Below are positions 1,969 through 36,959 of a DNA stretch of 64,000 nt, in pieces; within the stretch, counting starts at the first letter, position 1, and each line of letters begins with the position of its first letter. The notes under the pieces are model-generated. The model did no database searches, was not told where the DNA came from, and worked only from the letters and a program-made list of their open reading frames with translations. Source of the stretch: Fistulifera solaris (lineage: Eukaryota); NCBI GenBank assembly GCA_030295235.1, contig AP026135.1, positions 62,001 to 126,000 on the forward strand, read 5' to 3'. A program made the translations under genes and the position numbers.

Positions 1969-3663
1969 TTAAAACCGCTTGTGATTGTTATCTTCGCCAA
2001 CAAGAATGGTTCGTAACTCTTGCTCGGTTAGAGAGCAAAGCCCCTTCGAGCTATCACTCGCGTGAGACGCATTCAACGATCGATCCCCGGATGCAGTCGT
2101 CGTCGTCGTAGGAGGCAAAACAAAACGTCCATGAGCACGAATGGTCCTTCCCTTTGTTTTCAAAGGACGTTGCACGCACAAATGCAATTGCTCGCGTTGG
2201 ACATCCCATGGTGAAAAGATACCTTCCAAGCATCGGGTGGGGGAATAAACTCGAATTTGGTTGGTACTCGCGTCTTCTCGCTGCGGTGGATATATTTCAA
2301 TATTAACTCCCTCAACATGACTGTCATCCGGAACGAATCCGAACGAATGTTGCAATACCAAACACAAGAGTGGCTTACGGATAATCTCGGTTCGCGGAAC
2401 GAGTTGCGCTTTCCGGCACAATTGGATCCAACCATCGATAAATTGTTTGGATAAGCCGTGTTGACGATATTGGGGATCCAAATACACACCCATCAGTGAT
2501 GACGTTGTCGTTGAAATATCCTTGCTTTCGGCCGTTGTCAACAACATATAACCTATTTTTTGACGCGGATGGGACGTGCTCCAAAGAATGAGACGTAGAT
2601 CTTTGTAGGATTGTCGATTGGGTTGTGCCGTGAGGGTAAAAAAGCCGTTGGTAGCCACGACAAAGTGTTTCATGGATGTAACATTGCCGTCATTCCATCG
2701 TTGTAGAATATGGTCGGGCCATGGCGTTCGTTTCCGTGATTGCTTTTCCAATAATTGCGAAGAATGCAAATTGTCACAGACTTTTGTACTTGCGGATTCA
2801 TCACTATAACAAGCGACGCACAACTGTCGCAATCGCTCTAGCGATTCGTCATTGGAATGACCTCTCGCCACAATTTCAAACGATTGTCGATTGTAACGTT
2901 GTGTGCGAATCATGTTAATTTCCAAGAATTCCATGGCACGATCGGGTGTCAATTTTCCCAACAACAAATTGTACGATAAGGTCGTCCACGGCGTCGTGGT
3001 ATGCGTTTGTTCGTACAACAGTAGAGCATCGTGGCCCGTCGGTGCGGCGGCCAAAGCCGAATTGAGTAACGCCACATTCGTGGTGAACCTGTTCGAATGG
3101 TGATCGGAGAGCGATAACAGTTGTACTATTTGATTCCAAAGTGTTGCTGTTGCGAAGTGTCTGGTATCTCCGGCTTGAGGAGAATGGGAAGCCTGCTCCT
3201 TTGCTTGTTGCAATTGTTGACTGTAATTTTGTAATACAACATGACGAGCCGCGAGTGATTCCGGACACAGGGTCTGCCATACAGAATACGCCCAATCTGC
3301 ATACGATTCGCTATTCGTTAAAGTCGAACGGTGATTCCGATTCGAGTAATGTCGATAACACAGTTTCAAAACGGCCAGCGTTGGTGCTTCCCAAGAAGAA
3401 GATGGGTCGATCAACGAAGATTGTTGCCGGAGTTGTAATAGCTCCTTATACGCGTCTTTGGGCGATGTATGATGTGAATAAGACGACCATTGTCGCGTCA
3501 ATAATAGTATTTTGTGCTGCAGTTGCTTCTGCTGCAATGATTCTACAGTTTGTTTTTGCTGTGATGGCCTTGGTTGTGGATGTGGCTGAACGGAAAGTGA
3601 ATAAGCAAAAGCAATTCCTACAAAGCAACACAAAGCGGCACGACGTAGTCGCGCCAAGTGCAT
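1969..3663 (-). CDS. PPR-like helical repeat + GNAT-like domain protein, probable signal/plastid presequence
   Basis: 564-aa ORF; hydrophobic N-terminus; PPR-like segments (VALLNSALAA, TLSYNLLLGKL); GNAT motif A-like LMGVYLDPQYRQHGL. Confidence 0.65.
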   Translation of the reverse strand: MHLARLRRAALCCFVGIAFAYSLSVQPHPQPRPSQQKQTVESLQQKQLQHKILLLTRQWSSYSHHTSPKDAYKELLQLRQQSSLIDPSSSWEAPTLAVLKLCYRHYSNRNHRSTLTNSESYADWAYSVWQTLCPESLAARHVVLQNYSQQLQQAKEQASHSPQAGDTRHFATATLWNQIVQLLSLSDHHSNRFTTNVALLNSALAAAPTGHDALLLYEQTHTTTPWTTLSYNLLLGKLTPDRAMEFLEINMIRTQRYNRQSFEIVARGHSNDESLERLRQLCVACYSDESASTKVCDNLHSSQLLEKQSRKRTPWPDHILQRWNDGNVTSMKHFVVATNGFFTLTAQPNRQSYKDLRLILWSTSHPRQKIGYMLLTTAESKDISTTTSSLMGVYLDPQYRQHGLSKQFIDGWIQLCRKAQLVPRTEIIRKPLLCLVLQHSFGFVPDDSHVEGVNIEIYPPQREDASTNQIRVYSPTRCLEGIFSPWDVQREQLHLCVQRPLKTKGRTIRAHGRFVLPPTTTTTASGDRSLNASHASDSSKGLCSLTEQELRTILVGEDNNHKRF

Positions 3664-4386
3664 CTGTCTTCACTTTTACAAAGAATCAAACAGGTAGTTG
3701 TTGATTTAATGATGATAATAGGCACAATAGGAAGACGAGGAGGCGATTCAATGCGTTTTACCTGATACTGCAACGATGCACGTGTGTTTTCGCGAAAATC
3801 AATGCGAGAGCAGTGCCGCTCGGCCATCAGTATAAGTCTTACTGTAGTCTGGTGTCTAGAGTGTGCTTATTCAGTCATGATCAAAATTCAGCCATGAATT
3901 GTTATTGAGGTCGTTCCTAATTGAGCTCTCTAGTAGTAGACTAGTCTATATATTGAAAGGGACATTTCGAGTCTATAACCGAAATGTTCGCGTTTCGTCT
4001 TTTCGTATTTCGCGCGGTCGCACACTTTGCCATATTGCTCAAACGGGACGAAGGAAGCGAAATACGAAGACGATACGAAACGCGAATGTTCCGGTTACGG
4101 TTAGAAACGACCCTAAGCTCAACTGTCTCGACATTCACTTTCATCAACGTTGCTTACCGTAAACTGTTAGACTGTTATATAGTACAGAAACCCAACCCAA
4201 AACGTGGAGCATACGCCATGTTGCAACGCTTCGAATGTCTACACGATTATTATTTTACGTAGCTCTCGTAGGGAAATTAATCGACAGAGGGGTACGGTAC
4301 CGGTACCCGGATACTGCACTGTTTGCAACTTGCAACCATCATGCGATTATTATTTTTTGGCGACACGATGATGAGGATGAAGTGAT

Positions 4387-5432
4387 ATGATTGATAAAAA
4401 ACACAGGAACTTCACGGTTCATATTTATTCTTTGTTGAAATATATAAAAACTTTATCATTGCTTATTGGGATGATAGCTTCGATGACTCAATCATCAACC
4501 GATCAAGGACAAAGTATCAACAAAGAAAGCGACTCGTCCTCCTTTTCACAAGTTGTTGTCGAAGAGTCATCTCCGTTGAAAGACAAAGAAGATCCAACAA
4601 CGAACAAAACTCGTCACAACGAGAATGAAATAATCAGCAAAACACCAACGCCCCCGCGATTTCCCCGGTGGACCGAATTGATGAAGAAACGTCACGCGAG
4701 CAAAGAAAAGAATTTGTTTCATTTGGGAGACACCGAACACTGGCACATTTCGGTACAACCCAATCGCAATTCTTCGCATTCCTTACGTATGATCATTCAC
4801 GACAAGCAAACGCAACACAAACTGGCCTTTGCCTTGTTAACGACGAATCGCAATCGATCCTCTTTAATGGGATTGTACATTGATCCGAAACACCGAGCAC
4901 AAGGATTGACACGTCGTATTTTGAGTCTTTGGTTGCAGTGGTGTATCTACGCCGATCCAACAATGCATCCGCAAACAGAAGTGATTCGCAAACCGCTATT
5001 GTGTTGTGTGTTGGAGCATGCGTTGGGCTTTGTCGTGTCCTCGTCTTCGTCCAGTTTACCAGTTTTTCTCGTACAGTCCAATAAGGACGACCAACGCATT
5101 CATTTACATTCGATACCACCACAATGTTTGCGCGGTGCCTTCTCGGCACGGGATATTCAACGAGAGGGATTGACAGTGCAATGCAGTGTGTGTCTTCGGC
5201 GGAATGAAGAGCAACAGCGAAAAGAAGGTCCAGAAAAGAAGAACAGCCAGAGCAAAAGGAACTTGTCGATCAATTAGACGAACGCAAAGTACAGCAACCT
5301 AGGCGACGACGAATCCATCTGAATGCACGCTACGAAAGGCGCGAACCATGGAAAACATTACCCGATGATCCTATTTTACAAACAGCCTTACGGCCGGATC
5401 AATTGCGCCTGATTTTACTGGGAAAGTTATAG
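4387..5432 (+). CDS. GNAT-like domain protein, paralog of the C-terminal half of 1969..3663
   Basis: SSLMGLYIDPKHRAQGL and EVIRKPLLCCVLEHALGF align with the neighbour. Restoring one A near 5234-5238 extends the frame to ...DQLRLILLGKL* (stop 5430-5432), matching the paralog's EQELRTILVG. Confidence 0.65.
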
Positions 5433-13341: not shown

Positions 13342-13532
13342 ATAGAAACAATGATGCCCCTGCACGACTTTTTATGTTTACAATATTTTGTGTTTCAATT
13401 TGATATTTCCCAACTACTGCATCGTTTCGAATCCATTGTTTTCTTCGGCAAAATGAGAGGCGATTCGCTGTCGTAATGACTCGGATAAGGATATGCTACT
13501 GGCTGGTGAACTGGTTATTTGTGTGGGTGTCC

Positions 13533-15425
13533 TTAAAGACGAAAGAGAAGGTGCGGCCGGCAAAGAAACGTCCCCGTTGTACTTTCCTCCATCATCAGAA
13601 ACGAATCTGTTGCAATGGTACTCTCATCCATCCGTCGATCCTCTAATCTTTGTGGTACCTCCTCGTTGTCATGTGGATTGTGAATGTGCCGTCGAACCGA
13701 TTCGTATCGCTTTTTTCGTTCCAAGTCTTTCCAAATGGAATAGATCGATGGCTCACTCGATAACGGAATAGATAGATCGTGGTCGGCAGTTTTGTAAAAG
13801 TAAGGTTGGAGGTTGGAATAGAACGAATCTTGGTCGTCATCGTCATCTTTTGATGGTAACGAATCGCTTGAGAAAGGAACTTTGGGCAATTTTGTAGTAG
13901 CCACACGTTCTGGCATGAATTCCGTCAAGTAAATATTATCATCGTGCATCATGCTGCATTCGACATCTCGAGGAGTTCCCGTGAGACTGGAAGCGACCGA
14001 TTGATTATCGTCATGGTCGACCCGAATTTCGTCGGTCGATGCTTGACTGAACGATTCACGCGGTTTACCGAAATAACTGTCGTCGTCATCTCCATTGAAA
14101 GGAGAAATGCACCAGATCCCAATCAGTACCGCCACGATGAAAGCAATTATCAACCCAATTATTGTGAATGCCTTGCGTCCTGTTTCACTGATTTGTGGTG
14201 CTTCCTTCGTTTGTTCGTCTTCTTGTGGTTTTTCATCATATGTATAAGTATTATTGCTTTGCACGGAACCGTTCGGGATATCCTGATTCAACACAGTTAC
14301 TCTGGCCGTAGCTAGAACCTCATCCTCGTCCAAATGGAGTTGCACAAGTAAGTGATTGGCCAGTGCTATACTTTGTTGTTTCTGGATCTCTTCCGATGCA
14401 TCGATTCGAATGTCTTCGACCGGATCCTTATACAGATTCCCCGTGAAACGAAAGGACGCGTCCGGCTTGGTTTCCTCATACGATCGCGACATTATCTGAA
14501 GTGCCACATTGTGGATTCGGATATCTTCAAGGACAATCGAATCCATCAAATAACGTTCCAGGGCCCGTTGCACCAAAGCATCGAATCCCGAATGCCAGGA
14601 TTCCTGCGCCGTCAAATGCAAATCAAAGCTCATCAATTTGACAATGTCATAATAGACTGCCTGATCATCGCTCGACGGTATTTCCGGTGCCGAAGTCGAT
14701 TGTGTTCTGTCGGGAGATAGTGTGGGTGGGGGTGATTCTTTCACTATACTGATGGAAATTTGAGGGGCTGCTTTCGGAGATCTGGTTGTCTCCGGATTAT
14801 CGGTAGCCATGCCGGTTTCGACCAGGAGGGATTGTGTTGGAGGAGCCGTTAAAGCAACGGGGGATTCTGTTGCAATATTCACATAGCTCATTGCCACAGA
14901 TGGACTGACTGACGCCGACGGAGAAACGGTGGGAAACGCTCGGATGGTGTAATCGTCATTTTTGCTCTCATTGCTCTTGTTCTTCTTTTGCCGCCGAGTG
15001 GGAGAAGCTGTAGGAAAGAATGTTGGGAATGACGTAGGGAACGAGGTCGGCGAGGGTGTACGCTTTCGTTTGTTGCTTTTCTTTTCTTTGATATAGCGGG
15101 TTGGGGATGGCGTCGGAGCAGGATCGCTTCTATGTTTACTATTCTTATTTTCATCATTGTCATCTGGATTGTTCGGACTTGTGATCAATACGGATAGATT
15201 GGAATCATATTCAGGATAAATAGATGGAGCAATTGTGGAAGGATACGCACTCGCGTATTGAAAGAGCTTTCTTTTCCTATCATTCTCAATGGTCGCACCC
15301 TTCAGTTTATCGCCGCGAATTGTGCCTGCGTCAATCGAGAGAGCCAACGGAACCATCCATATTGCTGTGAGAAACGTTTTGCTGTTGATCATGGTCTTAT
15401 TAGATCTCAAGAAGGTAGTCAGCAT
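13533..15425 (-). CDS. Single-pass mucin-like membrane protein (cluster member 1)
   Basis: Signal peptide, RKL, Lys clusters, PT/PS repeats, shared domain (LMSFDLHL...LERYL...FRFTG), TM FTIIGLIIAFIVAVLIGIWCI, long cytosolic tail. Confidence 0.8.
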   Translation of the reverse strand: MLTTFLRSNKTMINSKTFLTAIWMVPLALSIDAGTIRGDKLKGATIENDRKRKLFQYASAYPSTIAPSIYPEYDSNLSVLITSPNNPDDNDENKNSKHRSDPAPTPSPTRYIKEKKSNKRKRTPSPTSFPTSFPTFFPTASPTRRQKKNKSNESKNDDYTIRAFPTVSPSASVSPSVAMSYVNIATESPVALTAPPTQSLLVETGMATDNPETTRSPKAAPQISISIVKESPPPTLSPDRTQSTSAPEIPSSDDQAVYYDIVKLMSFDLHLTAQESWHSGFDALVQRALERYLMDSIVLEDIRIHNVALQIMSRSYEETKPDASFRFTGNLYKDPVEDIRIDASEEIQKQQSIALANHLLVQLHLDEDEVLATARVTVLNQDIPNGSVQSNNTYTYDEKPQEDEQTKEAPQISETGRKAFTIIGLIIAFIVAVLIGIWCISPFNGDDDDSYFGKPRESFSQASTDEIRVDHDDNQSVASSLTGTPRDVECSMMHDDNIYLTEFMPERVATTKLPKVPFSSDSLPSKDDDDDQDSFYSNLQPYFYKTADHDLSIPLSSEPSIYSIWKDLERKKRYESVRRHIHNPHDNEEVPQRLEDRRMDESTIATDSFLMMEESTTGTFLCRPHLLFRL

Positions 15426-15866
15426 TCATTAGCCTTTACCTTGTAGTCTGGCAAAATTGTTTCATTCTTGAAAAAGTGAGGAAAAGTTTTTCAAGGTCAA
15501 CGCATCGGAACGAAAATTTGGGAGTGCTGCATTTTTTGCTTTGTGGTCCAGTGTCCTAAGTCACTGTAGCGAAGGGTGTGGCTTACTCATGAATAAATTC
15601 CAGTCCTGGTAAAGTACGGGCAACACTTTGAGGGTATAGTAAAATTGTGGAGGAGGATCGCAAGGTAGCTACGCGATAATCGAATACACCCCGTATTAGT
15701 TTTCAATTGTGTCTCCGCGTGCTTAATAGTAGTTGTAAAATCAAGTCAAGAACGAAGTTGATTCCGCTAGAAATTCGAAAGTATCCAACGAGTGATTTCT
15801 ACTAGTGAAACATTTTTCTAAAGTAACATAAAGCAAATGAATTTGGAAGCAGACTGCCTATTTCTC

Positions 15867-17078
15867 TCACATATCCAGCGATTCGCAAATACTTCTGTCC
15901 AAGGTATAGGACATGGCATAGGAGGCATAGTCAGGCAACTCATCTTTCACTCTTTGCTCGGTGATACTTGATGTTATCGAAGGAGCGTCCGTATGGTATA
16001 CGATAATAGTTGCCGTGGGGTTGGTGGATCGAGATGTTCTGGAACTCTTGGAGGACGTTTGCGGCTTCAATGGTTCTTCGGGTACTTGCCTTCGGTGACG
16101 GAAGGCCATGTATATGGCACCAGTGCCGATGATGGAAATAAGCACAACAAAAACGCAACCAGCGATGACAATCAAATGGGTAGTACCTTTCCAGTATAAG
16201 TGACCGCCCGCAGCGCCATCCGGAAGCGTACGGCTTTCTACGAATTGTACTTTCGTTACTCTGACTCGAGAAACTGCCATGAAAGGATTCTTGTCAAAGG
16301 TCGCTTGGAGCGATGGTTGATCCATCATCACCTGTAGTTGCTGGATCCAAATAGCATCTGGATTAATACTTTGATCGAGGCCAACATCGTAATAGTAGAA
16401 TCCCTGATAGCGATAGGCACATTCGGTCGTTTCCGGATTGCACGAGACGGTTTTCAATTTGAGTGTAACATTTTTCCCTTCCATACCTGGAGTATTCAAA
16501 TGTGATCCGAGGAACTGTTCGACAGTGGATTGAATGTGTTCATCATCAAAAGATGAGCTCCATTTCGGATCGCGCCACAAATTTAACTCGAACGTTTTCA
16601 AAGGAACGGAGAATGTGACGCTTTGTTGCTGTAAAGGAACTTCTTCGACGTCTTGTTTCGGCAAACTATTCTCTAGGTAAGCCGTCGGACTCAGTGTATC
16701 TGCTTTGCGACCCTTTGCACTGTATGCATCACTTGAGTCGTCTGATGGGTATAATTGTGATTTTTTGGGTGCAGTGGCAGGTTCCATTTCGTTTTCGGTC
16801 CATTCCAATGAGAGAGACTTGGTCTTCTTGTCGGATTTTGGGCTTCGTGTGGGTTCTGATGATGATGATCTAGTAGGACTGCGACTTTTTTCTGATTTCT
16901 TTCTTTTCGGAGTATACGATGGAGGGGAAGCAGGGTAGAACGTCGGACTGCTGATTACAGTCGAACTATCGGCGAGAATGCGTTGCCCGATTGCTTCCGA
17001 AAGGCTCGACCCTACTGCAAGCGAAAGCAAAAGCAGACACCATTGATGTCGGTGTAGTGGAAAAGGATTGCGACGCAT
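15867..17078 (-). CDS. Single-pass mucin-like membrane protein (cluster member 2)
   Basis: Signal peptide from MRRNP, RIL, KKSEKS/KSDKKTK, shared domain (PLKTFELNL...VEQFL...YRYQG), TM LIVIAGCVFVVLISIIG. Confidence 0.8.
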   Translation of the reverse strand: MRRNPFPLHRHQWCLLLLSLAVGSSLSEAIGQRILADSSTVISSPTFYPASPPSYTPKRKKSEKSRSPTRSSSSEPTRSPKSDKKTKSLSLEWTENEMEPATAPKKSQLYPSDDSSDAYSAKGRKADTLSPTAYLENSLPKQDVEEVPLQQQSVTFSVPLKTFELNLWRDPKWSSSFDDEHIQSTVEQFLGSHLNTPGMEGKNVTLKLKTVSCNPETTECAYRYQGFYYYDVGLDQSINPDAIWIQQLQVMMDQPSLQATFDKNPFMAVSRVRVTKVQFVESRTLPDGAAGGHLYWKGTTHLIVIAGCVFVVLISIIGTGAIYMAFRHRRQVPEEPLKPQTSSKSSRTSRSTNPTATIIVYHTDAPSITSSITEQRVKDELPDYASYAMSYTLDRSICESLDM

Positions 17079-17549
17079 TGCGATGGACTTTTTTAGATCA
17101 AAACGTAGACGGTGTCTGTGGTTATCGTCAATGTCGCTACATTTTTCCTTTCGGCGTTGGTAATCTTTTATCGATTCTTGTCGGGACACCAAAATACAGT
17201 GCCTGTCTTTCGCGTCTCGTCCGGCGCGCACGATTGGATGACACGAGCGCGAGACCCGCGAAATTTTTCGCATCGGCATTTTTGTCCTTTGGGATCGTGA
17301 CTCACTTGTATTATTTGCCGGGAATGGCTACTAATTCATAGGCATGACTCTGACTCCTTATGTTTAGACTTGGAACTACAATCGACAAATAGACTCCTAC
17401 AACGTATGCGAACATGAATGTGAATGCTCCAGTCTACGCTCTTCACTCAAGGATCGAACTCCTGAGCGATGCTTCAAGCTGACGGGACATGCACATGAAT
17501 TTACCGAAATAACAATTTTGACTCAAAAATCTGATTAACGAATTCATAA

Positions 17550-18860
17550 TCAAGCACTCCGCTTTCGTCTTAGATAGTATCCCAAAACATCATTTTCGGG
17601 AGATACGGATGCATTTTCTTCATGTCCTTCATCCGTCGGCAAACTATTGTGGTCTTTTTCGTCCTCGACAAATAGTTCCTTTTTCGTTTCCATGACAACT
17701 TGTCCTCCTCGTGACGGATGGCCACTAATCGTATTGGGAACGGATTCTGCCTCCGCCAAGTTTGCCTTGGCCGTATTCATTGGTTGATCGGATGACACAC
17801 TCATGGGCCGCGGCTCGCTCCGTAACACTGCGGGTTCCATGAAGTGCGCCTTGGTGGTCCATTTCTTTGGCCGGGGCGGAGAAGCAGGATCATTCTCTGG
17901 ATCCGAATATCCGTCCATGAGAATACTATCGGTATCAAATTGATGTACGGGAGCACGAATGGGACTCGCCGACATACTATGATGCGTCAATGATTCTTCA
18001 TCTTCCGAGGGCGTTCGTGTTGTGACCACGTAAAAGGAAGCCGGGACGACTTTTCCCATGGGAGTGGACCACGCGATCGATGCCGCGTCGTCCTGAGTCG
18101 GTGGTTTTACTGGGTCGGGTGGTAGCTGATTTTGTTGTTGACTTTTCGGTGGTCGCTGATTCTTCACCCGCCACACAAAAAAAATGAAACACAACACGCC
18201 TCCCAGCAGCACGACGGCAATCACGATCCATATCCATCTTGCAGGATTTCTCTCGTCATGTTGTTTCGGTGCAGGCGGCAAATACCAAAGTAGGGGTTTA
18301 TCTTGCCAGAAAGCATGTAGGGCCACCGTATTGGCCAAAGATGTTAGTTGCAAACGCTGCAATGCCGCAATATCCTCGCTGGTGGGAGGCAAGGCCATGA
18401 GAGCTTCTCCGAGGAATTCATACACAAAGTAAGGCGTTTGCCAATTGATTTGTGTGGCGGTCATGGTGAGGAAAACATCGATCAAAACCGTTTCCGAATA
18501 AATGAGTTGCAATTGTTGCTTCAGATAATCACTCAATTTGTCCGCGAGAATGAGTTCATCATCCGGATGTTCAATAAAAATCATACGAAAGTGTTGCAAC
18601 GGCCATGTTGTCCGAAATTGAGTGATGTTTTGCGTCCTATTGACGAGAGTTTCGGTAGCTTTGGGTGAATTCGTTACGCGTCTCGTCGGAGATAATGTTG
18701 GTGCGAACAAAGAAGCAGTGATAGTCGGCTGCGGCGAAAAGAAGAAAAATCGCAGTTTGGCTTGCTCTACAACCTGCCGCTGCGCTGGAAAGGACTGCTG
18801 GGCTCGCAAAAACGGTAGAAAGAGGATTATACTCGCATATTGCATGCGTCGAAGCGTCAT
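17550..18860 (-). CDS. Single-pass membrane protein (cluster member 3)
   Basis: Signal peptide, short PT stretch, shared domain (PLQHFRMIF...LSDYL...YEFLG), TM WIWIVIAVVLLGGVLCFIFFVW. Confidence 0.75.
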   Translation of the reverse strand: MTLRRMQYASIILFLPFLRAQQSFPAQRQVVEQAKLRFFFFSPQPTITASLFAPTLSPTRRVTNSPKATETLVNRTQNITQFRTTWPLQHFRMIFIEHPDDELILADKLSDYLKQQLQLIYSETVLIDVFLTMTATQINWQTPYFVYEFLGEALMALPPTSEDIAALQRLQLTSLANTVALHAFWQDKPLLWYLPPAPKQHDERNPARWIWIVIAVVLLGGVLCFIFFVWRVKNQRPPKSQQQNQLPPDPVKPPTQDDAASIAWSTPMGKVVPASFYVVTTRTPSEDEESLTHHSMSASPIRAPVHQFDTDSILMDGYSDPENDPASPPRPKKWTTKAHFMEPAVLRSEPRPMSVSSDQPMNTAKANLAEAESVPNTISGHPSRGGQVVMETKKELFVEDEKDHNSLPTDEGHEENASVSPENDVLGYYLRRKRSA

Positions 18861-19338
18861 TGTTGGAAAATGAAAATGAACTCTCAATAATTACGTTGAA
18901 TTCACTGCTTCTCTTGGTGACCTATTTTATATTCTTGTGCGCATTGCCCCCCTCTTCCTTGTTCTTCCACTCTAGATTGGTTACTCTAGAAAATCTACCG
19001 CGTTCAATATTAAGGATCCTTTATTATTTCGGGAGATATACGAGCGCGGCACACCGCAAAAGAATTGTCTTTTGTGTCGTGGGTGCGCGCTCCTGGACGA
19101 CTTTGGGTGCTGTTTTGTGTGCGCACCAACGCCTGCGTTGTGCCCGTTGATTTCGGAGGACGGACGAGGCGGACTTGAACAACTAATATATAAAACGTGT
19201 TATTGGCTCTACTTAAGCAGTGATGTTTTTTCAACTTCCCTCCTTTTTTCGGTGTTCGTCACAAAATAAATTGAACGCAAAACAAAATCAAGTTGCGTGT
19301 TGTTTGCTTGTTTCCTGTTATCCTTCTCACTTTTGAAC

Positions 19339-20053
19339 ATGGTAAACGCGCTACATGTTTACAAAAATCTTTTATGGATCAGCCTAGTGGGCTCACGTAC
19401 AACGACGGAAGCCACATTGAGGAGACGAGAAAAAGAAGAAAAACGTACTGACGACAATGCCCACGACGGCCCCGACAACGGTGCCCACCATCGTCTCTGT
19501 ACCTACAACCATCGCAGCAGCATCTTCCGATTTCATGACGAACGACCAGCAATTATCATTTATATCATTGCGAAATTTTTCGATGCATTTGCAGCCACCT
19601 GTGATGGAAACAGACCGATTGATGCAAAGTATCGAAGCATACTTGCAAGAAGGATTCTTGTGGAATATTCAAACAGTGACCTGGGGAGAGGTGCAACAAG
19701 TAGTATCCTCCGAAGCATCAGCATGGTATTCATTTGGAACCGGAGTGCTGCAGCTAGTCGATAATGTTGATACCAATCATACAGACATGATACAACAGGA
19801 GCAAGTTTCCCTCATGAAAGATACAGCACTCCTCGAATATGTATTGCGACAAGATTTCTTTACTCCGGACTTGAAAGTTCTGCAAGTTCAATTTGCGGGC
19901 GAACCAGCGCTACCGAACGATGCCATGTTTTCCAGTGCACTTTCCAAGGCGCAAAAACTCTCGCTATTGATTTTGAGTGTCTTGCTGCTATTTTCGATTG
20001 CTGCAATCGTATGTTTACGCCGTTATTGGAAAATACAAAGCCGAAAGCTTTAA
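19339..20053 (+). CDS. Single-pass membrane protein (cluster member 4)
   Basis: N-terminal ORF joined by one indel at the A run ~19439-19443 to PTTAPTT, shared domain (LRNFSMHL...IEAYL...YSFGTG) and a C-terminal TM. Confidence 0.7.
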
Positions 20054-20179
20054 TTCGTCTTTGGAGCTCTTGAACTTTCAAAACATTTGATAAGACTATG
20101 GCACTAGCTAGACGAATGCGAAAGCCAAATCAAACACTAAAAGTTACCGTTAACAGGCCGAGTTTTACAAGTGCTTCGT

Positions 20180-21775
20180 TTATCTAGCTGCTTCGGGTTC
20201 TGCCATGAAGTCGTCTTGGGTTTCGTCTTCAAATATTTTGATCTCTTTTTTATTGTCGTCGTCGCCTTCCTCGTCTTCATCCTCGTCGTCTTCCTCTGGA
20301 ATTGTCTGCGGCCGTTTCCATTCGTCAGTTTCGTGAAGATCTTCTTCCGGCACAGCTTCGCCCACCTTGGGTCTTGTTATTTGATAGCGTCGATATACCA
20401 CCAATACACAGAGGACAAAACTAACGATACTCAATAGTCCGGCAATCAATACGAGAAGACTCCGATCGTTGCTGTCAGCGCCAGCGTCACTCGGCGAACG
20501 ATCCTCATTGTCCCCTTCATCCTTCGCTTCCGATAGGGACAAGTCCAAAATCATAAGATTTGGATCGTTCATGCGTTGTTGTAGTTCTGTTTGTATGAAA
20601 TCTACGTCTTCGAGTAATCGTGTTTGATCTTCGTGTACTTCTGCAACCGTCACATCTTCAGCTTCTGTTGCTATTACACTTTTCCCATTCGCGAAGCTAT
20701 AGCCCTGGGCAGTATTTCGCTGTTTGGTAGGCTCGGGTAATGGAAAGATAACAGCCTCTAATCCATCTATTAACAATCCATCGAAAAAGATCGACTCCAT
20801 GCTGTCTCGTAGTTTCCCCGTTTCATTGACTGGATAAGCCAACGTTAAAACAAAATCCAACAATTCGAATTCTCTCGTGTTCAAGGATGGCGGTTCATTG
20901 GATGGCTGCGCGGCAGGGGAATCGTTTGCCTCGGTGGGAGATTCGGTCCTTGTTTGTGTGGGTCCTGGTAGTTCGCCCGATGGCAGAATCGTAGGAAGCA
21001 TGGTAGCGGCAGGAGATAATGTTGGGCGTGTTATCGGCGGTAAGCTAGGGCGGTCGACGGGCTTCTGAGGTGTCGAGGTGGGTTCACGGTCACTTGGATT
21101 ATCCTCATGACCACCGTCGCCATTGTCACCGTCATCCGTATCGTCGCCGGAAGTGACGTCTTTTCCGCCACTCTCATCACCCTTGTCCTTCTTGCTCTTC
21201 TTCTCAGATTTTTTATGGCCGCCGCTATCGTCTTCATCTTCGTACTCGTCGTCAGGGTTCTCACTTTCGTCTTTACTTGTCTTTTTTCTTCTTTTTTGAC
21301 TTCGATGGTCGGCTGTTTGGACGTTTTTCGTGTGAATTGTGATCGTCTTCGTCCTTGTTATCGTCGTCTCTCTTTTTCCCTTGAAGCTGAGACGGGGAGA
21401 GGGTGGGATTGTCGTCTTGGTTTTCGTCAACGTCGTCTTCATCTTTCTCTCGCTTTTTCCCCTGAAGTGAAGGAGGGTTACCCGTTGTCTGATCATCATT
21501 ATCTTCGTTTCCTCCTTGCGTGCCATGTAGCTGAAACATCGGTATTGTCCGACTCTCCTGTTTTTCGTGTGTGTTTTCATTTAGTTTCGTTTCGAGTATT
21601 ATGTCATGTGGTATTAAATGATTAGGCTCGGACCGTGAACTATATCTCCTCGTAGCGCCTTGAGTCTCCTTCTTCTCCGCGTACTGTTACGGGATTCCGC
21701 ATATGGAGCAACAGAGAGCAGGAGCACAACGAGTGTGATGGATCGGCCGAGTCTGCCGGGTTGTATGGATAGCAT
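20180..21775 (-). CDS. Single-pass acidic/Lys-rich mucin-like membrane protein (cluster member 5)
   Basis: Reconstructed start MLSIQPGRLGRSITLVVLLLSVAPYAES-RNSTRRRRRL at 21775; indels near 21630 and 21285; shared domain (LLDFVLTL...MESIF...YSFANG); TM LLVLIAGLLSIVSFVLCVLVVY. Confidence 0.7.
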
Positions 21776-22311
21776 CTCGAACTTGTGTAATCCTTGGATA
21801 GGACCTACAATATCAAAAGGAGGCTGTTATCTCAAGGTTTTGTTGTTCGACGTGTTGATTCATCGCCACAGAGGGATTAAAATTCTCGTCGGTGACACTT
21901 TCGAGGAGTCACGCAACGAAGAAATCATCCTTGTCAAAAAGTGGCGAAAATTTTATTCCTTCAAGGGACACGATTTCGGAGGCTATGTAAGGAAACGTGA
22001 TTTGAAATATATAGTAGACAAATGTAGTGCGCAGGTCTACCGCGGTACTGATTTCGCATATTTAGAAACAATTCCTACGGAGCTTTCGTATTTGGGTCGT
22101 TTTTGCCGTCATGTTAGTCTCAAGCTTTCGGATGACAAAGACACTTTTAGCATTAGATCAGAGCCATCATTCTCATTTCGAGTTTTCGTGCGGTTATTGG
22201 TGTTCAGTTGAATTAGTCGACGTGGGAATAGGATAATAAACAGCTAAAGTAATTAAGAGGCGATAGTTATTCATTATGTTTCGAAGTTTCAAACCATTTT
22301 GTGCACATTTG

Positions 22312-23211
22312 TTATTTCTTGATGGATTTGTATCTGCGATAGCATACAGCAGCAGCGGCGCAAAAGGTAATGAGGCACACGACTGTAGCAGCAATCATGA
22401 GTGCGGCATTCGTTTCATTATCATTTGCCGGATGAATCAGGTGAGCCGATGGAAGCAAGACATTTTGTTCCATAATCTCAATTTCTTGTACTCGAATGGT
22501 TCCGTCTTCGAGTTCTTGTTGCAACGCGCTTTCCACAAACGAAAGGTCGGATAATAGCTCTCTTTGCTGAGTCTGTAGCAACCCCACAGATTCCTTATTT
22601 TCCACAAGAGCACTACCGTCCGAAAACGAATACGTCTGAGAATTTACTTGCGCCGGTGTTGTTGAAAATTGTATCTCTTTGACGTCGACTAACACTATTC
22701 CGAGACGCAAGGTTGTTTCCATACCCTTTTCCAGGCGATCTAAATCGAGGGAGGTTTCCGAGGTAACGGATATTTGAAAGTCTAGCAGAGGCGCTGACAA
22801 AAGGTTTAAGTCGGGTTGCACGGGAACTGATGAACTCAATGTGAGAGTTGGTTGAGTGGTTGGTTCTTTCGTTGGATACAGAGTAGGGATTGGTGCTTCC
22901 CAGTTGACGGATTCTTCCGCTTCATCCTCATCCTCCTCGTCTTCGTATACTTTACTCACAACGGGTGATCTCGTCGGGGCTATTGTAGGAGCCGGTGTCG
23001 AAGAAGTTTTTCCGTCGTCTTTTTTCTTGCCTTTGTCTTTTCCTTTGGGGGTAGTACTACGTTTTGTACCCGGTGGCAACTCATGGGCACGGTCAAAAAT
23101 ATTTTCCCATTGCTGGTCCGAAGGTTGGAGACGTTTTGCCTCCACGAATGATGAGGAGTCACACAGCAGGCAACTATAAAGTCCCAATGTTAGCCATTTG
23201 CAAGATATCAT
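22312..23211 (-). CDS. Single-pass membrane protein (cluster member 6)
   Basis: Signal peptide, KRL, KGKDKGKKK, PT repeats, shared domain (PLLDFQISV...METTL...YSFSDG), C-terminal TM. Confidence 0.8.
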   Translation of the reverse strand: MISCKWLTLGLYSCLLCDSSSFVEAKRLQPSDQQWENIFDRAHELPPGTKRSTTPKGKDKGKKKDDGKTSSTPAPTIAPTRSPVVSKVYEDEEDEDEAEESVNWEAPIPTLYPTKEPTTQPTLTLSSSVPVQPDLNLLSAPLLDFQISVTSETSLDLDRLEKGMETTLRLGIVLVDVKEIQFSTTPAQVNSQTYSFSDGSALVENKESVGLLQTQQRELLSDLSFVESALQQELEDGTIRVQEIEIMEQNVLLPSAHLIHPANDNETNAALMIAATVVCLITFCAAAAVCYRRYKSIKK

Positions 23212-23808
23212 GGTGTTTCAACGTCTCATTGCCGTGATATCGTTGCTTGTACCCTTCGCAAAACGGCTTTTTCCAATGCGTGGATGAGGTGAAAAAGACG
23301 CGCGAAACACATGTTCGTCGCCCGTTGCAGATCAAATTTTGAGATCACCACAAGACACGAACAGTTGTTGTCGCTGTGGCACTGAAAAATGGCGCACCTC
23401 TCATCTCGATGTCTAATTACCTGAAAGTCGATCTACTGTAACCGAAATGAGTATCCAGTCCAATCACCAGCACGCGTAAGTGAAGTGTACTGTCACAAAA
23501 ATTTTCAAATTGAGATCGTTAAATCTAGTAATTCCTCTCGATTATTTAACAAAAAGTGTTTAAGTATCATTCTCTTCGTGATACTCAAGAGAACAATCCT
23601 TATTTCTCCGTTGGGGTGTGACTCCCTATCTAGTGCACATCACCTGACCAATTCACCACCGCTTTTGCCGACTCAACACGTTTGTAAGACTCCTCTCCCG
23701 TCATGCACACAAAAACACCTCGCGAACATCCCGTCCAGACAAAAAAAGTGCAACATAAGACCGATTTTGGAGCGATTCACTTGAACATTCACAAACTAAT
23801 TCGCAACA

Positions 23809-25740
23809 ATGAATTCCCTGTCGCGTTTAATAGTGCTAGCAGGGCTGTTGCTACAAGTGCAAGCAGCACCACGAGGGAGCCCCTTGGGTTCAAGGCGTTT
23901 GGGTCACCAAAACACCGAGTCGCCTACACCAGCGCCGACGCGGAAAAAGCATCTCTACTCCAACGTCGACAATCTCAATAATCGAGTTGAAGAAGACGAT
24001 GCTGACTGGTGACTACACCGGCGCCTACCACTTCCCCCACGCCTCCGACGTTTCATGCGAATTGGGGGCACCAACTCCTACGGTGCATGACAAGAATACT
24101 CCATGGATTGATATCGACGGGGATGATGATGGAGACGACGATGGTGGCGATGACGGAGGAACGACACCTACCGATGTAATCATCACACCAGCCCCAGTTT
24201 CTTCTCCTGTAGTGTTTGGCCCGCCCGTTCCCACTGCTTTCCCTGTTCCTGCACCTGTACCGGTACGAAGAACACGCCGACCAACACCCGTTCCTACGCT
24301 GCCACCGACGGTGGCTCAAGCTGCTCTCCGACGGTAGCTCTACCAGGGGTTTCGGCAACCGCTTTTCCGACAGTCGCTCTACCAGGCGTTTCGGCAACCG
24401 CCTTTCCGACGTTTCCGGGTGTGCCTGCAACTGCGTTTCCAACGCCTCCCGGATTCACGGCAACATCTTTTCCGACTCTGGATCTATCGAAATATTGGAC
24501 CCCGGATCCGACGGCCTCGCGAACAGCCGCTCCAACATCGTTTGGTGAAACAGCGTCCCCATCGGAAGCGCCCTCATCGGCACCGAATATCGGGACATTT
24601 GCGCCTGTGCAAGTCATTCCGATTGATTTTGGATCCATCGGCCATTTGCCGACCCTTTCGTTTACATCGCGTCCCTCGGCTGTTCCTTCCGTGTCTCCCA
24701 CGACCAGTGCACCTTCTTCGGCACCGACCGTCTTCTCGGCCATGCCGACGGAAGACAATACGATGTGGACACCGCTCAAAACCTTTGATTTGCAGCTCTC
24801 GCGGGATACCCGATGGAACACGCAATTTGCGCCCGATGAATTGCGTCAAGGTTTAGAAACTTATTTGACGGAGTCCATGATGATCTTGTCGGCCGATATG
24901 ACGAATGTTACGTTGACGATCTTCACTTCGGCATTCAATGAAGACAAATCGGAAGCATGGTTCCGATTTCAAGGCAAATTATTTTATCTGCCCAAGAGCG
25001 AGGACATGGAAATCAGTTCCGATGAAGTTTGGGCGCAGCAAATGGCATTACTGGAGAACATGGATGCCTTGCAATGGATTTTGCAAAATCAACCCACCAT
25101 GGCGGCGGGCTTTGTCACCATCAAACAGTTGGCCTTCTTGGACGGTTCTTCCACACAGACGTTTGATGGATACAGTGGTGGTAGTTCGAGTGCTTTGGAT
25201 CAAACAACGAAGATAGTGATCGCGGTTGCGGCAATTCTGTTGATTCTGGCGTGCAGTGTGGGAGTCTACATTTGCATGTTTTTGGATCCCGAGCCGGAAG
25301 AGGAGCCTTTGCCCATTCAAACCAAGCTCACTCCGCATACCGACAGTGACTTTTCGATCGGAAAGGGACTTCCCGGCAATCCTCACGTTCCGGAAGTCAC
25401 CTTTGATCAGGAATCGCACTCGGAAATGTCCAGCATAACCGAACTACGAGCGGACGATCCGCGACCAGACATCCCCGGCGCATCTTCGGTCGATGCCATT
25501 GCCTCGAATGATTCTCGACTTGTTCCACTCTCATCACTTCCCGCCGATTCCTCGCATCTCAGTAGTAGTAGTAATAACAGTCAGCAATATCGAACGACGG
25601 ATTCGGTCCAACTGAGTCAAAGCGAATGGTCCATGGCGGCGGGAAACACGGACCCGCCCGCCCATACCAGTGCTTTGGGTCCGGAAGCGTCGGAACAAGG
25701 ATCGGTAGAGGATCTCTACGTGACGTCGGATGCGAAATAA
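23809..25740 (+). CDS. Single-pass mucin-like membrane protein (cluster member 7)
   Basis: Signal peptide + RRL; indels at ~24008, ~24065 and ~24329 restore one frame; ATAFPT repeats; shared domain (PLKTFDLQL...LETYL...FRFQG); TM IVIAVAAILLILACSVGVYICM. Confidence 0.75.
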
Positions 25741-26411
25741 CATCACCGTATTGCCTCGCATTTTTCAGCCCTCTTCTGTGAATTTGGAAACATACGCACA
25801 CCGTTCCTATATATATAGAGCTTATCCAGTTACGACAGCATTGGAATGGTTTCCATTTCAGAAAAAGTTGTTTTTTTTTATTTATTGGAATGAATATGAA
25901 CTAAATACTCTAAAGTCGTGATGATTGTTGTAGAAACGAAGATTCATATTTGTTTTCGCTAGTTTTTCAACTAAGAAACTTTAAGCAGTTCAACGCAAAT
26001 AATTTGATTATCTTGAGCCATGTGGGGTTCGAATTAGTTTGTGCATGTTGAGTGCACCGGGATGCGTTGTTGTTCCTCTCTCTCTAGCAAAGTGAGGTGG
26101 CAGAGAACGAGGGCTAAATAAATAAATCAGGTAAGCCGTTAATCTTCGTCGCACTGGCTATCAAGACTGTAGCATGAATTGTACGCGCCCTTGGATTTGA
26201 CAAGATTGACGTCGGTCGACCGTGAATGAAACAGTAGAGGGGAAGCCTTTCGTCATTTTTTTTCTTGGCCAACGTCGATTGCTGTGTACTTTTACTTTTC
26301 ACTCATTTGTCGCGCATCCTGAAGAAAAAACAAGGAGTTCTGTGAGGTGAAGTTTGATTCATTCTTCATCATCTTCATCCAAGCAAAAAAGAAACAAACA
26401 AAGAAATTATC

Positions 26412-28768
26412 ATGTCCATGAATCACACAATTCCGATTGAAAGTGAAGAAGCTTCGGCGAGTCTCTCTACTTCAGATCTTTCCGGCGGCGTGAATCAAAC
26501 AGCCTTCACGACAGACGATGACAAAATGGAAGATGTCGAAGTAGGAGGCAATGATGCTCCGGAAGAACCGGTCATGACCCAAGGAAATACGTTAGTCGAT
26601 GTTCCCGGAACGATGAACAAAGGCATTCGTGCGGGTTCGATTCGTCGCTGGGTTTATGTTACGGCAATTGTGTTGATTGTGTTGGCAATTGTGATTGGCA
26701 TTGCGGCCAGTGTCTCGAACAATGATAACAAAACATCCGCCTCTTCTTCTTCTTCTTCTTCCGGATCCTTTCCCAACAGTTCGCCAGTTGCGTCTCCCGT
26801 GGCTTCTCCCACTGCGGCATCGCCCGTCGCCGCAAATCCTACCGCTCCTACTGCCGCAGCCCGCCAAGCCACGTACGAACAAGTCGTGACGTTTCTTTCC
26901 TCACGCGGCGTTTCCAAGGAAGACGAGCTGCGTCGCCGCGGGAGTTATCAGCACGATTCGGCGGTCTTTCTGGCGAATCATGATCCACTCAACTTGCCGT
27001 TGCCGTCGAGTACCGACTTGAGTGATCCGCAAGTCGAACATTATGTCACGCGCTACGTTATGACCTTGTTGCATCACGGGTTGGATGGATACAATTGGAC
27101 GTTCCAGCTCAATTTCATGAGTGAACTCGAAATGTGTTACTGGAATGGTATGAAATCGACCTTTCAGCCAGATTTTATCCCTCTGGCCGAAGCGGGAGGG
27201 GTATTTTGTTTGAATGGTACCCAAACGCCCGTGGCTTTGGATTTAGGCAAGTGATTGCGGCATGGCCTTGTGTTTTACACACGCTCCTTTGTGTTCTCAC
27301 GGTTTATCTTCAGAATTCAACAAACTCAAGGGAACGATTCCGACGGAACTCGGATTGCTGACCAAATTGGTGTTTTTGGATTTCGAATTTAACGAAATCA
27401 ACGGGACGATACCTACTGAATTGTGTCAATTGACCGATTTAGAGCATCTTTCCTTACGGGCGAACTACTTGACGGGCGAGTTGCCGAGTTGTATGGGGCA
27501 ATGGTCGAAATTGGCGTATCTAGACGTCGAAGTCAATCAGTTGGATGGATCGTTTCCTCAAGGTGATGCTCTTTGCAATATGAAAGACTTGGATACAGTC
27601 GTCCTTCAACGAAACTTGTTCAGTGGAGCGCTTCCGACTTGCATGGGGCAATGGACGCGTTTGAGGGGCTTCTTTGCTTCCGAAAATTTCTTTACTGGTA
27701 GACTACCATCGGAACTGGCGTTACTGCCTAATGTATCACACTTTCTTGTGGATGACAATGAGTTGACGGGCAATCCGAACACAGTATTTAGTGACATGCC
27801 CACTTTGACGTTCTTATATTTAGACAACAATCAGTTTACGGGGGTGATTGATTCCACGTTTGTTGCCAACTCACCCAATTTGACTGCCTTGGATATATCG
27901 CACAACAATTTCACCTTGGATCCTGCCTCGCCCGTTTTCCCGCTCCATTTGTTGCAACATCCGACACTGCAAATTCTTGATGCTTCTATGAATCTTCTCA
28001 ACGGTAGTTTGCCTTCGACCGAGTTGCAAGCGAATAACGCATTGCTCTTTTGTCGCTCCACGCAAATGCTTTGAGAGGAAGCATTCTCGACAATTGCACC
28101 AATTCAGTGAATTGGCGCATTTGGATTTGTCTTTGAACAGCTTCACGGGAGCTTTACCGGATCAGTTGTTTTCCCTGAGACTTTTGAATCTATTCTTGAG
28201 CGAAAATCCCAATTTGCAGTCCGGTCTTCTTCCAGACTCCGTTCTGACCAATCATACCGGCTTCCGTGAACTTTCCTTGCGCAACACACAACGCACTGGA
28301 CCCTTACCCTCGTTGGTTGGTTTCAATGATTTGGAGTTGTTAGATCTGGGAGGAAACGACTTTACAGGAGCCATACCTACGCAGTACTCTGAATTGCCCG
28401 ATTTGCGGTACTTGTTGTTAAATGGCAATCCAGGCTTAAGTGGTTCCATCCCGGTCATGAGCCAGTCTCCTGCGTTGCAGATTGCGCTGTTGGATAACAC
28501 GGATATTTACGGCGACTTTTCCAGCCTTTGCGCTTTGACGGCCTTTACGGACCTCGATGCATCGGACGTGTTGGGTGACAGCGCTTTGATTGTGAACTGC
28601 AACACGACTGCCGGTACCGTATCAAATTGTGCGTGCTGCAAATGCTGCCACCGTCCGGGAGGATGTTCCAATCCGGTCGTAGCCAGTTTGGACTGGACGT
28701 GGGAACAAAGAATGTCACAAACGGTGCGCGATTTTGCAATAAACGACACGCTCTTGTTGGATTTGTGA
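26412..28768 (+). CDS. Type II membrane leucine-rich-repeat protein (plant-type LxLxxNxLxGxIP repeats)
   Basis: N-terminal TM, SP-rich stalk, many LRRs, C-terminal CACCKCC; GC-AG intron 27247-27313; two indels near 28050 and 28086. Confidence 0.85.
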
Positions 28769-34731: not shown

Positions 34732-34866
34732 GGGATGCATTATCTTGAAGCAACATGAATGAATCATGTGTGTTATGATGGGTCTTATTTGCGTGGCATG
34801 CGTTTACTGCGTATCCGCGTCAATTACCATTGTGTAGTTGTTACTATTAGTGCAAAGCAGCGAATA

Positions 34867-35673
34867 ATGTTAATTAGATTGATTCTGACTTTATTATGTT
34901 GCTGGAGTATTGCGGGTTATCAGCCTTCACCACGTAAATTATCAGCGGCATCATGGCAGAGAAGTATAGACAAGGCAGCAGTCGAAACGGTTTTATCGTA
35001 TTCTTCGCGACGACGCTTTTTCGGTCAGTTCGCATTGACTGTTACGGCAGGTTCGGTGATCACTACCCAACCTGCTTTCGCGGCTACCTTCACACCCGGA
35101 GGTACATTGGTCGATCGACCCGTCGGCGTCACCATCAACAATCCCGAAGCATCCCCGACGCGCGCGTTTGACAACAGCAACGTCTTGTTTCAACAAGATT
35201 ATTTCTTCAAATTCGGAACGGCCGCCCCCTGGATTGACGAAAGCAATCGATTGGAGTTTCCCACCCAAATGCCCTTTGTCCGAGTGCAACAACGCTACGA
35301 TGCTTTGCAGAAATATGGGACACGCGTGCAACGGGGCTTAGAACAAGTCGCGAGTTTATTGTCAACGAAGAATACAGAGGGAACTGTTCTGGAAGCGGAT
35401 CATCCCGTTTACGCGTTACGGGCACTCGGATTGTTGGCGAATAGTTTCTGTGCGTCCGAAAATACGGGGACGACCAATGAACTCTTGTTGGCGCGGTATT
35501 ATGTCAACGAAATCTATCTCGGCATCAACGATATTCGAATGAATCCTGATCGAACCAAACAAGCGTATCGCTCGTGTCTCAAAGCAACAAACTCTTATTT
35601 GAATATGATGAATCGAGTTATTACGCCCAAAGTGGGTGAGCCTTTTGTTTTGTTAGATATCACGGACGCCTGA
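34867..35673 (+). CDS. Probable plastid thylakoid-lumen protein of unknown function
   Basis: Signal peptide, then SSRRRFF + hydrophobic stretch + AFA (Tat-type lumen transit pattern). Confidence 0.65.
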   Translation: MLIRLILTLLCCWSIAGYQPSPRKLSAASWQRSIDKAAVETVLSYSSRRRFFGQFALTVTAGSVITTQPAFAATFTPGGTLVDRPVGVTINNPEASPTRAFDNSNVLFQQDYFFKFGTAAPWIDESNRLEFPTQMPFVRVQQRYDALQKYGTRVQRGLEQVASLLSTKNTEGTVLEADHPVYALRALGLLANSFCASENTGTTNELLLARYYVNEIYLGINDIRMNPDRTKQAYRSCLKATNSYLNMMNRVITPKVGEPFVLLDITDA

Positions 35674-35801
35674 GGACAATCGCTAATTTGTGAAAAACCA
35701 GGTTCATATGCTAGGCAGTTAATAGAACAATTAATCATGCAAGTTCTTTCTATATGATTATTATCTTTGTACATTCTCTATTTCATTCATAATCATTTCG
35801 T

Positions 35802-36307
35802 TTAAACGAGGAAACCCAAGTCACCACCGTTCTTCTTGGCCAATTTCACCAAATTCGTTCGTAGCGTTCTAGGTGCTTCGGCCAACCATTCTTCCATATC
35901 AATGGATCCATTCTCGTCACGATCGGCACGAGCAAAGATACCCTTCAGTTGTTTTTCCTTCAAAAACGCACCAAAACCCAATGCTTGTAACGCGACGACG
36001 AGTTCATCTTCTTCAATGACACCATTCTTGTTGATATCTGCCAATTCAAACAATTTTCGCAGCATCGTCTGGCCAAATTCTGTTTCGGCGGTATCCACGA
36101 AACGACCAATGACGTCCGAGTGTAGGGAAATGGCGTTGCCGCGGATCTTGTTGAGACGTTCCTCTCCCAATACTCCCTTGGCGGCAAGAACCACGGGAGA
36201 AAAGATGCCGTTCTTGTGATGATCATCAGCTTTCTTCTTGGGAGTATTCTTTTTGGGTGGTTCTTGTGGAACCAAATTGTGGTCGTGGTCAGCGGTGGCC
36301 ACAGAAG
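35802..36307 (-). pseudogene. 5'-truncated copy of the EF-hand gene
   Basis: Identical to 36960..37465 but lacks the presequence and promoter. Confidence 0.7.
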
Positions 36308-36831
36308 CATCCCCGACGCGCGCGTTTGACAACAGCAACGTCTTGTTTCAACAAGATTATTTCTTCAAATTCGGAACGGCCGCCCCCTGGATTGACGAAA
36401 GCAATCGATTGGAGTTTCCCACCCAAATGCCCTTTGTCCGAGTGCAACAACGCTACGATGCTTTGCAGAAATATGGGACACGCGTGCAACGGGGCTTAGA
36501 ACAAGTCGCGAGTTTATTGTCAACGAAGAATACAGAGGGAACTGTTCTGGAAGCGGATCATCCCGTTTACGCGTTACGGGCACTCGGATTGTTGGCGAAT
36601 AGTTTCTGTGCGTCCGAAAATACGGGGACGACCAATGAACTCTTGTTGGCGCGGTATTATGTCAACGAAATCTATCTCGGCATCAACGATATTCGAATGA
36701 ATCCTGATCGAACCAAACAAGCGTATCGCTCGTGTCTCAAAGCAACAAACTCTTATTTGAATATGATGAATCGAGTTATTACGCCCAAAGTGGGTGAGCC
36801 TTTTGTTTTGTTAGATATCACGGACGCCTGA
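36304..36831 (+). pseudogene. 5'-truncated copy of the lumen-protein gene
   Basis: Identical to 35146..35673; lacks the presequence and promoter. Confidence 0.7.
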
Positions 36832-36959
36832 GGACAATCGCTAATTTGTGAAAAACCAGGTTCATATGCTAGGCAGTTAATAGAACAATTAATCATGCAA
36901 GTTCTTTCTATATGATTATTATCTTTGTACATTCTCTATTTCATTCATAATCATTTCGT

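Follow-up and report, generated by a model that had tools for sequence, protein, structure and literature searches.

The animal membrane mucins MUC1 and MUC16 combine a signal peptide, a stalk with a high content of proline, threonine and serine (P/T/S), a domain of the SEA-type fold (PF01390), a transmembrane (TM) helix and a cytosolic tail. Fungal signalling mucins were recently shown to follow the same stalk-SEA-TM plan (bioRxiv 10.64898/2026.05.06.723240), and in diatoms the sole SEA mention that we found is MRP1, described as SEA-like by structure (bioRxiv 10.64898/2026.03.25.714164). Here we analyse seven consecutive genes (g1-g7) of the diatom Fistulifera solaris, located in a window of 64,000 nucleotides (contig AP026135.1, positions 62,001 to 126,000). 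Their products are single-pass membrane proteins with a shared domain that, judging by structure models, is SEA-like in fold and context and likely shares common descent with SEA. To glide, adhere, build walls and sense partners, diatoms require membrane-crossing proteins, of which few are known. The family offers a short list of such candidates that can be tested in a transformable species, with a recognisable mechanical or shedding module missed by Pfam, and would extend the mucin-SEA-TM design of animals, and recently fungi, to stramenopiles.

The diatom proteins resemble MUC1 and MUC16 in the whole order of elements, and some of their relatives carry tandem domain copies, as MUC16 does. 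They differ in having no PF01390 match, no tight GSVVV hairpin and stalks of only about 45-320 amino acids (aa), and some relatives carry an RRxLQ protease-type motif in the hairpin. By analogy, fungal Msb2 would be the precedent closest in logic: it too is reported to have a mucin stalk and a SEA-type domain beside the TM helix that was missed by sequence and found by structure alone. Msb2 is a signalling mucin, whereas the diatom side consists of seven clustered paralogues known from sequence.

The genes span positions 13414-25740 with the orientations - - - + - - + (Table 1). A preliminary description, made from the letters of the window, had placed the start at 13533; its end point holds, and the true stop of g1 lies at 13414 because of an assembly indel at 13571. 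Open reading frames (ORFs), hydropathy and P/T/S counts bore out its picture of seven consecutive genes in mixed orientation with one architecture: a signal peptide, a P/T/S-rich stalk, a globular domain of 112-128 aa (given as ~105-125 aa), one TM helix and a variable tail, the domain motifs that it quoted being present in all seven ORFs. The TM helix is single in each gene (21-aa hydropathy 2.5-3.1) and lies 12-36 aa after the domain, and tails range from 9 to about 200 aa. The P+T+S fraction in the 40-60 aa preceding the domain is 0.30-0.50, compared with 0.21 on average over 120 control windows, for which the 95th percentile is 0.30; the enrichment is borderline in g2. Signal peptides were assessed from hydropathy alone, and that of g4 is weak (hydropathy 1.4).

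The seven domains proved homologous, as had been claimed. Leave-one-out hidden Markov models were scored against 874 six-frame ORFs, and each left-out gene ranked above all non-cluster ORFs, with E-values of 1e-24 to 8e-9 for six genes and 0.009 for g3, the weakest of the seven. Eight of the 21 domain pairs beat all 500 shuffles and form the subgroups g1/g2/g7 and g4/g5/g6, with g7 bridging and g3 weak. A profile built solely from 40 domain copies of outside relatives placed the seven genes in its top seven ranks (E 2.5e-22 to 5.9e-5, as against 0.56 for the match that came after them), a test that is not fully independent because these relatives had been recruited using a profile of the seven. 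Chance resemblance was rejected by both kinds of profile. No DNA similarity was detected between the seven genes (blastn, word size 7, E<0.01), in agreement with the preliminary description.

In the genome searched (51.7 Mb, 62 contigs; the window is on contig C16), all seven genes recur on the homoeologous contig C15 with order and orientation kept. The homoeologous domains are 78-99% identical, with ratios of nonsynonymous to synonymous substitution rates (dN/dS, from our own Nei-Gojobori script) of 0.01-0.26; the regions after the domain give 0.08-0.42. The domains are under purifying selection, and g7 is the most conserved member (domain dN/dS 0.01). Its domain matches F. solaris FisN_30Lh100 (GAX13806.1) at 100%. 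Comparison with an independent contig set revealed indel errors in the window at 13571, 18736/18745, 19439, 21282, 24007, 24063 and 24327; once these are allowed for, g1, g3, g4 and g7 are whole, and g7 is identical to GAX13806.1. A pseudogene array was rejected, since the indels are absent from the independent contig set and dN/dS is low; only the g5 insertion near 21643 stands.

A gap-free contig of the independent set runs across this 2-nucleotide insertion, which, compared with the homoeologue, lies near 21641-21645. The g5 frame stops at 53 aa, after the signal peptide, unless an intron is spliced, and a candidate 83-nucleotide GT-AG intron at 21640-21558 would give 503 aa. The g5 frameshift is real unless this candidate intron rescues the frame, and the other frameshifts are mostly assembly errors. 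The strain-supported insertion coincides with a GT absent from the homoeologue (window 21558-21645), possibly an intron gain or the loss of one homoeologue. A 190-codon frame on the plus strand, 21639-22211, overlaps the 5' end of g5.

Expression was assessed in three runs (X2-X4) of one study, whose RNA label is a tool's guess. Cover was obtained for g3, g6 and g7, and in two runs g7 is followed by poly(A); g1, g2 and g4 have no cover in X2-X4, which is not evidence of silence. An X3 contig on g5 has a loose end matching the homoeologue, and therefore expression of the window copy is not shown by it. The cluster is real, conserved and partly expressed.

Structure models cover two of the seven genes, g7 and the weakest member g3. 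The AlphaFold2 model of the g7 domain (41-row alignment) reached a predicted local distance difference test score of 95.5 and that of g3 (38-row family alignment) 81.7, both with the beta-alpha-beta-beta-alpha-beta order that the preliminary description had likened to SEA. Compared with 48,161 solved chains, g7 matched best PCDH15 MAD12 (Z 9.2, root-mean-square deviation 3.3, 98 aligned), followed among others by Gpr126 SEA (Z 8.4), Nup54 (7.5), MUC16 (7.0) and CARD1 (6.9). For g3, 12 of the 14 top rows were SEA/MAD-type, judged from entry titles, and the top Foldseek match was MUC16 SEA (E 1.6e-3). ESM features led to an unnamed 58-member cluster (scores 0.92 and 0.90), mostly diatom where the phylum is known, to two unnamed cnidarian-labelled clusters (0.87-0.90) and, as leads only, to SEA, collectrin and CD34 clusters (0.76-0.82). 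Nup54, collectrin and CD34 are reportedly grouped with SEA. We consider it highly probable, going by these models, that the g7 and g3 domains adopt a ferredoxin-like, SEA-like fold.

PCDH15 MAD12 (6bxz), which is also termed SEA (PMC7547225), Gpr126/Adgrg6 SEA (6v55), CDH23 MAD28, dystroglycan and plant CARD1/HPCA1 (9vbv) share the predicted ferredoxin-like fold at Z 7-9. Like the diatom domains, the divergent juxtamembrane SEA domains of the PCDH15 MAD12 group sit just outside a single TM helix and have no G-S self-cleavage motif. They show no detectable sequence similarity to them (8-14% identity), and this group has a cadherin, leucine-rich repeat (LRR) or other folded ectodomain where the diatom proteins have a P/T/S stalk only.

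Several observations weigh against a mucin-like, SEA-type reading. The ferredoxin fold is common, the structural matches share 8-14% identity, and Foldseek gave no match at E<=0.001. For g7, an M20 peptidase dimerisation domain ties (Z 8.4-8.6), within 1 Z of the leading SEA/MAD chains, as is a Cas protein for g3, and the g3 model is biased toward the family fold because it was built on the family alignment. No Pfam SEA-type match above the cut-off was obtained for any of 7 window proteins, 14 domains, 26 relatives and 19 domains (PF01390), and therefore the domain is not a PF01390 member. Outside the domain, the tails have no shared motif (one of 10 tail pairs beats all 300 shuffles), and g1 and g7 have no basic residues directly after the TM helix. 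The same topology also describes Sin1 and the SAPs, proteins of the silica deposition vesicle (SDV; bioRxiv 10.1101/2021.09.18.460806).

Profile searches of PDB sequences gave a best E of 0.19 (A3) and nothing (A8), and a PF01390 search of the genome found no match, but its controls were silent as well, so that it is uninformative. Weak Pfam matches on repeat-bearing relatives (GH3_C, DUF4440, Lumazine_bd_2) were rejected as summed repeat artefacts, and an Amnionless match on relative P0038 (E 0.078) is a hint only.

Self-cleaving SEA domains carry the motif G/S-V-V-V in a tight hairpin. The MUC1-type motif is absent from all 7 window domains, and among 114 domain rows just 5, all from relatives, carry GS[VIL][VIL], never at the hairpin tip. 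All four rows of the g2 lineage show a pair of cysteines in the beta2-beta3 hairpin, a possible disulfide staple. Within the same hairpin, RR[RKQ]?LQ, a pattern chosen after seeing the data, is present in 6 of 101 rows (114 minus 13 near-duplicates) and nowhere else in the domain. A looser count of R-x-L-[QEA] was dropped, since helix 2 gives background matches. MUC1 self-cleaves in its beta2-beta3 hairpin (PMC10327162), Notch and KIAA1549 are cut by convertases within their SEA-like domains (PMC13570299), and RXL is a known processing site in diatom biosilica proteins (PMC9650480, PMC10503012); by their motif, the RRxLQ hairpins of the relatives may likewise be cleaved.

A profile search among 1.84 billion representatives (50% identity) returned 36 at E<=0.001, with a close relative of each cluster gene among them; the tree described below does not settle the placement of g4. 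The domain is present in 56 of 58 collected proteins, in 1-7 copies each. Most relatives end in a TM helix and tail, while P0016 (Cylindrotheca fusiformis, six domain copies) and P0033 end in a hydrophobic stretch resembling a glycosylphosphatidylinositol (GPI) signal. The family's named species are F. solaris and C. fusiformis (a species name was reached for 2 of the 21 representatives looked up); a further relative search yielded 15 proteins and no additional named species.

A tree was built from 65 rows (75 minus 10 near-duplicates) and 125 columns, with no clade test and with long branches meeting. In it, 8 outside rows fall together with g1/g2/g7 (95/92), while g4/g5/g6 make up a clade by themselves (99/99); the long branch of g3 is placed among other outside rows. 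Because of these groupings, the sequences suggest that the three gene groups are older than the split from the organisms of the outside rows. The array had been called old; this fits the seven lineages, and linkage outside F. solaris was not demonstrated. Two metagenome scans gave no confirmed cluster loci outside F. solaris; the contigs that carry g7-like P0008 and g5-like P0023 are each 6,685 bases long, which hints that the two are linked.

The idea that the cluster is the whole family was rejected by further F. solaris members on other contigs (Table 1). Both C8 members sit behind a separate upstream ORF, followed by a P/T stalk and the SEA-like domain; the upstream ORF in L026 matches DUF6174 (E 6e-7), and L032 has a similar-looking one. 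P0029, P0040 and P0041 as queries gave no match in the F. solaris genome. No description of the family or cluster was found in the literature searched, from which most subscription journals were absent. The accessible parts of the silica proteome, trail proteome, phosphate and Myb network papers make no mention of such a domain, and preprint supplements may list members. A family of SEA-like diatom membrane mucins is thus apparently undescribed, as the preliminary description had proposed, with the qualification that UniRef auto-names g7 and its homoeologue FisN_30Hh100 'SEA domain-containing protein', on a basis that is not visible, and that MRP1 has been called SEA-like.

To the reading of the seven as diatom membrane mucins that act as surface tethers or sensors we would give an even chance. 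As type I proteins they would enter the secretory route by their signal peptide, and several would probably be trimmed there of an N-terminal RxL propeptide. The P/T/S stalk, carrying O-glycans, would then project from the plasma membrane into the sub-frustule space or mucilage, and the SEA-like domain under it, with no self-cleavage in the seven, could form a stable base that bears load immediately outside the membrane. Through its unrelated tail, each paralogue may contact cytosolic partners of its own or none at all. On this reading the cluster would form a repertoire of surface tethers or sensors, each of them old and conserved in its own right, with a mode of action like that of MUC1, yeast Msb2 or dystroglycan. 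Relatives with up to seven domain repeats or a GPI-like tail fit surface display. Glycosylation, propeptide cleavage, plasma-membrane location and function of the seven are what we infer here.

We consider it unlikely that the seven are instead silicalemma (SDV) membrane proteins that position the organic scaffold while the valve or girdle is being formed, to be clipped from the membrane afterwards, like the SAPs and silicanin-1. An R-x-L stands behind the signal peptide of g1, g2 and g7 and of the g5 orthologue; g6 has KRL there, g4 and the g3 orthologue lack the motif, and lysine-rich 14-mers (>=5 K) in g1, g6 and the g5 orthologue recall pentalysine clusters. RXL also occurs in many secreted diatom proteins, the domains hold 0-2 cysteines, unlike silicanin, and the GPI-like and multi-repeat relatives suit the cell surface better. 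The type I topology is that of Sin1, SAP1 and SAP3 (bioRxiv 10.1101/2021.09.18.460806), as it is of SAP1-3 and silicanin-1 as a group; the lumenal part of these proteins is S/G-rich or Cys-rich, whereas the seven have a folded SEA-like domain and no conserved cytosolic motif. The published description of SAPs (PMC10503012) gives them a lumenal region rich in S and G and a tail of 58-68 aa that holds a conserved 23-aa motif; set against this description rather than SAP sequences, the seven lack both. The silicalemma role first suggested for the family has nothing specific in its support.

A role as transmembrane couplers of raphid adhesion and motility, with the stalk as binding partner of adhesive strands at the raphe, the domain as load bearer and some tails in contact with the myosin or actin machinery, appears distinctly improbable. 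Both named species are raphid pennates, but these are the names behind just 2 of the 21 representatives looked up. The gliding model needs a molecular continuum across the plasma membrane (PMC11420354), and the domains that match most closely in structure sit beside the membrane and bear load (PCDH15 MAD12; PMC7547225). Adhesive trail proteins are reported to be P/T/S-rich; their CAA and vWA domains went undetected in the seven, whose tails, moreover, have no conserved motif. We hold as similarly improbable the broader proposal of diatom SEA-type mucins with a re-wired hairpin (RxL protease-opened, g2 disulfide-locked, or plain), at least one member of which links actomyosin force to adhesive strands in gliding raphids.

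Still more doubtful is a function as cell-recognition or mating receptors or ligands related to the SEA-like secreted MRP1 of Pseudo-nitzschia. MRP1 shares with the seven a signal peptide (PMC6261938) and a predicted SEA-like structure (bioRxiv 10.64898/2026.03.25.714164), a diverged ectodomain repertoire would suit recognition, and an LRR membrane gene adjoins the cluster. Compared by description only, however, MRP1 is probably secreted, mating-type specific and reported as positively selected, with no TM helix described and a different order of elements (five helices), whereas the seven domains are under purifying selection. No short secreted protein is among the 36 profile matches, and g3, g6 and g7 are covered in one study, its culture conditions not on record.

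Very improbable, finally, is an independently derived ferredoxin-fold spacer that is no SEA descendant, in proteins forming a passive coat or secretory-pathway spacers with no signalling: Z 8-9 is barely above the best Z usually reached by models that lack a clear match, there is no sequence-level SEA link, bacterial SEAL domains converge on a similar fold (PMC10327162) and the g4 and g6 tails have just 9-11 aa, but SEA-type chains of at least six unrelated protein families fill the top ranks for two models, the stalk-domain-TM context matches SEA usage and the long tails are conserved between homoeologues.

Table 1. Genes of the cluster, further family members in F. solaris and relatives with the hairpin motif
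Feature	Position	Strand	Remarks
g1	13414..15392	-	type I membrane protein of 659 aa; domain 14277-14648, TM 14106-14168; tail long and acidic/Ser-rich
g1 homoeologue	L008:3666-5168		
g2	15867..17078	-	403 aa; domain 16233-16613, TM 16113-16175
g3	17550..18860	-	436 aa, most diverged member; domain 18270-18611, TM 18171-18233; RNA-like contig cover
g4	19339..20053	+	237 aa after indel correction at 19439; short stalk; domain 19556-19903, TM 19955-20017; 11-aa basic tail
g5	20180..21775	-	signal peptide at 21775; stalk K/D-rich, then P/T-rich; domain 20525-20875, TM 20396-20458
g6	22312..23211	-	299 aa; domain 22465-22800, TM 22342-22404; 9-aa basic tail; partial RNA-like contig cover
g7 (FisN_30Lh100 / GAX13806.1)	23809..25740	+	644 aa; long P/T/S stalk; domain 24763-25146, TM 25213-25275
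g7 3' untranslated region	25741..25936	+	poly(A) loose end at 25936 in runs X3 and X4
F. solaris family member	G000:C8 ~954.8-956.1 kb (L026:897-2235, L033)		domain near 955.6 kb; E 3e-12; GPI-like end; homoeologue C7 ~1061 kb
F. solaris family member	C8 ~944.2-945.7 kb (L032:4247-5739)		domain fragment near 944.3 kb; E 5e-5
Hairpin RR[RKQ]?LQ carriers			P0029, P0034, P0036, P0037, P0038, P0040; relatives, not window genes

The LRR membrane protein directly beside g7 (26358-28765, plus strand) has an N-proximal TM helix and belongs to the same general class as MRP2/MRM2. Its gene contains assembly indels at 28047 and 28085 and has RNA-like contig cover, with poly(A) near 28897.

Elsewhere in the window, ORF pairs with long identical translations lie within 34759-37652 (34759-35670/36223-36828 on the plus strand, 35805-36347/36963-37652 on the minus strand), either a local exact duplication or an assembly artefact. 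The region 47838-61122 (minus strand) shows strong strand skew; in it, two ORFs for DUF285 membrane proteins (47838-49757, 57978-59312) are interspersed with D/E/S-rich ORFs of great length (49717-54750, 54717-57398, 59077-61122), possibly duplicated giant genes with acidic tails. The divergent neighbours 1972-3669 (minus) and 4381-5274 (plus) share a segment S[LS]LMG[LV]Y[IL]DP...R..GL, followed by IRKPLLC.VL.H, which we take to be GNAT-like.

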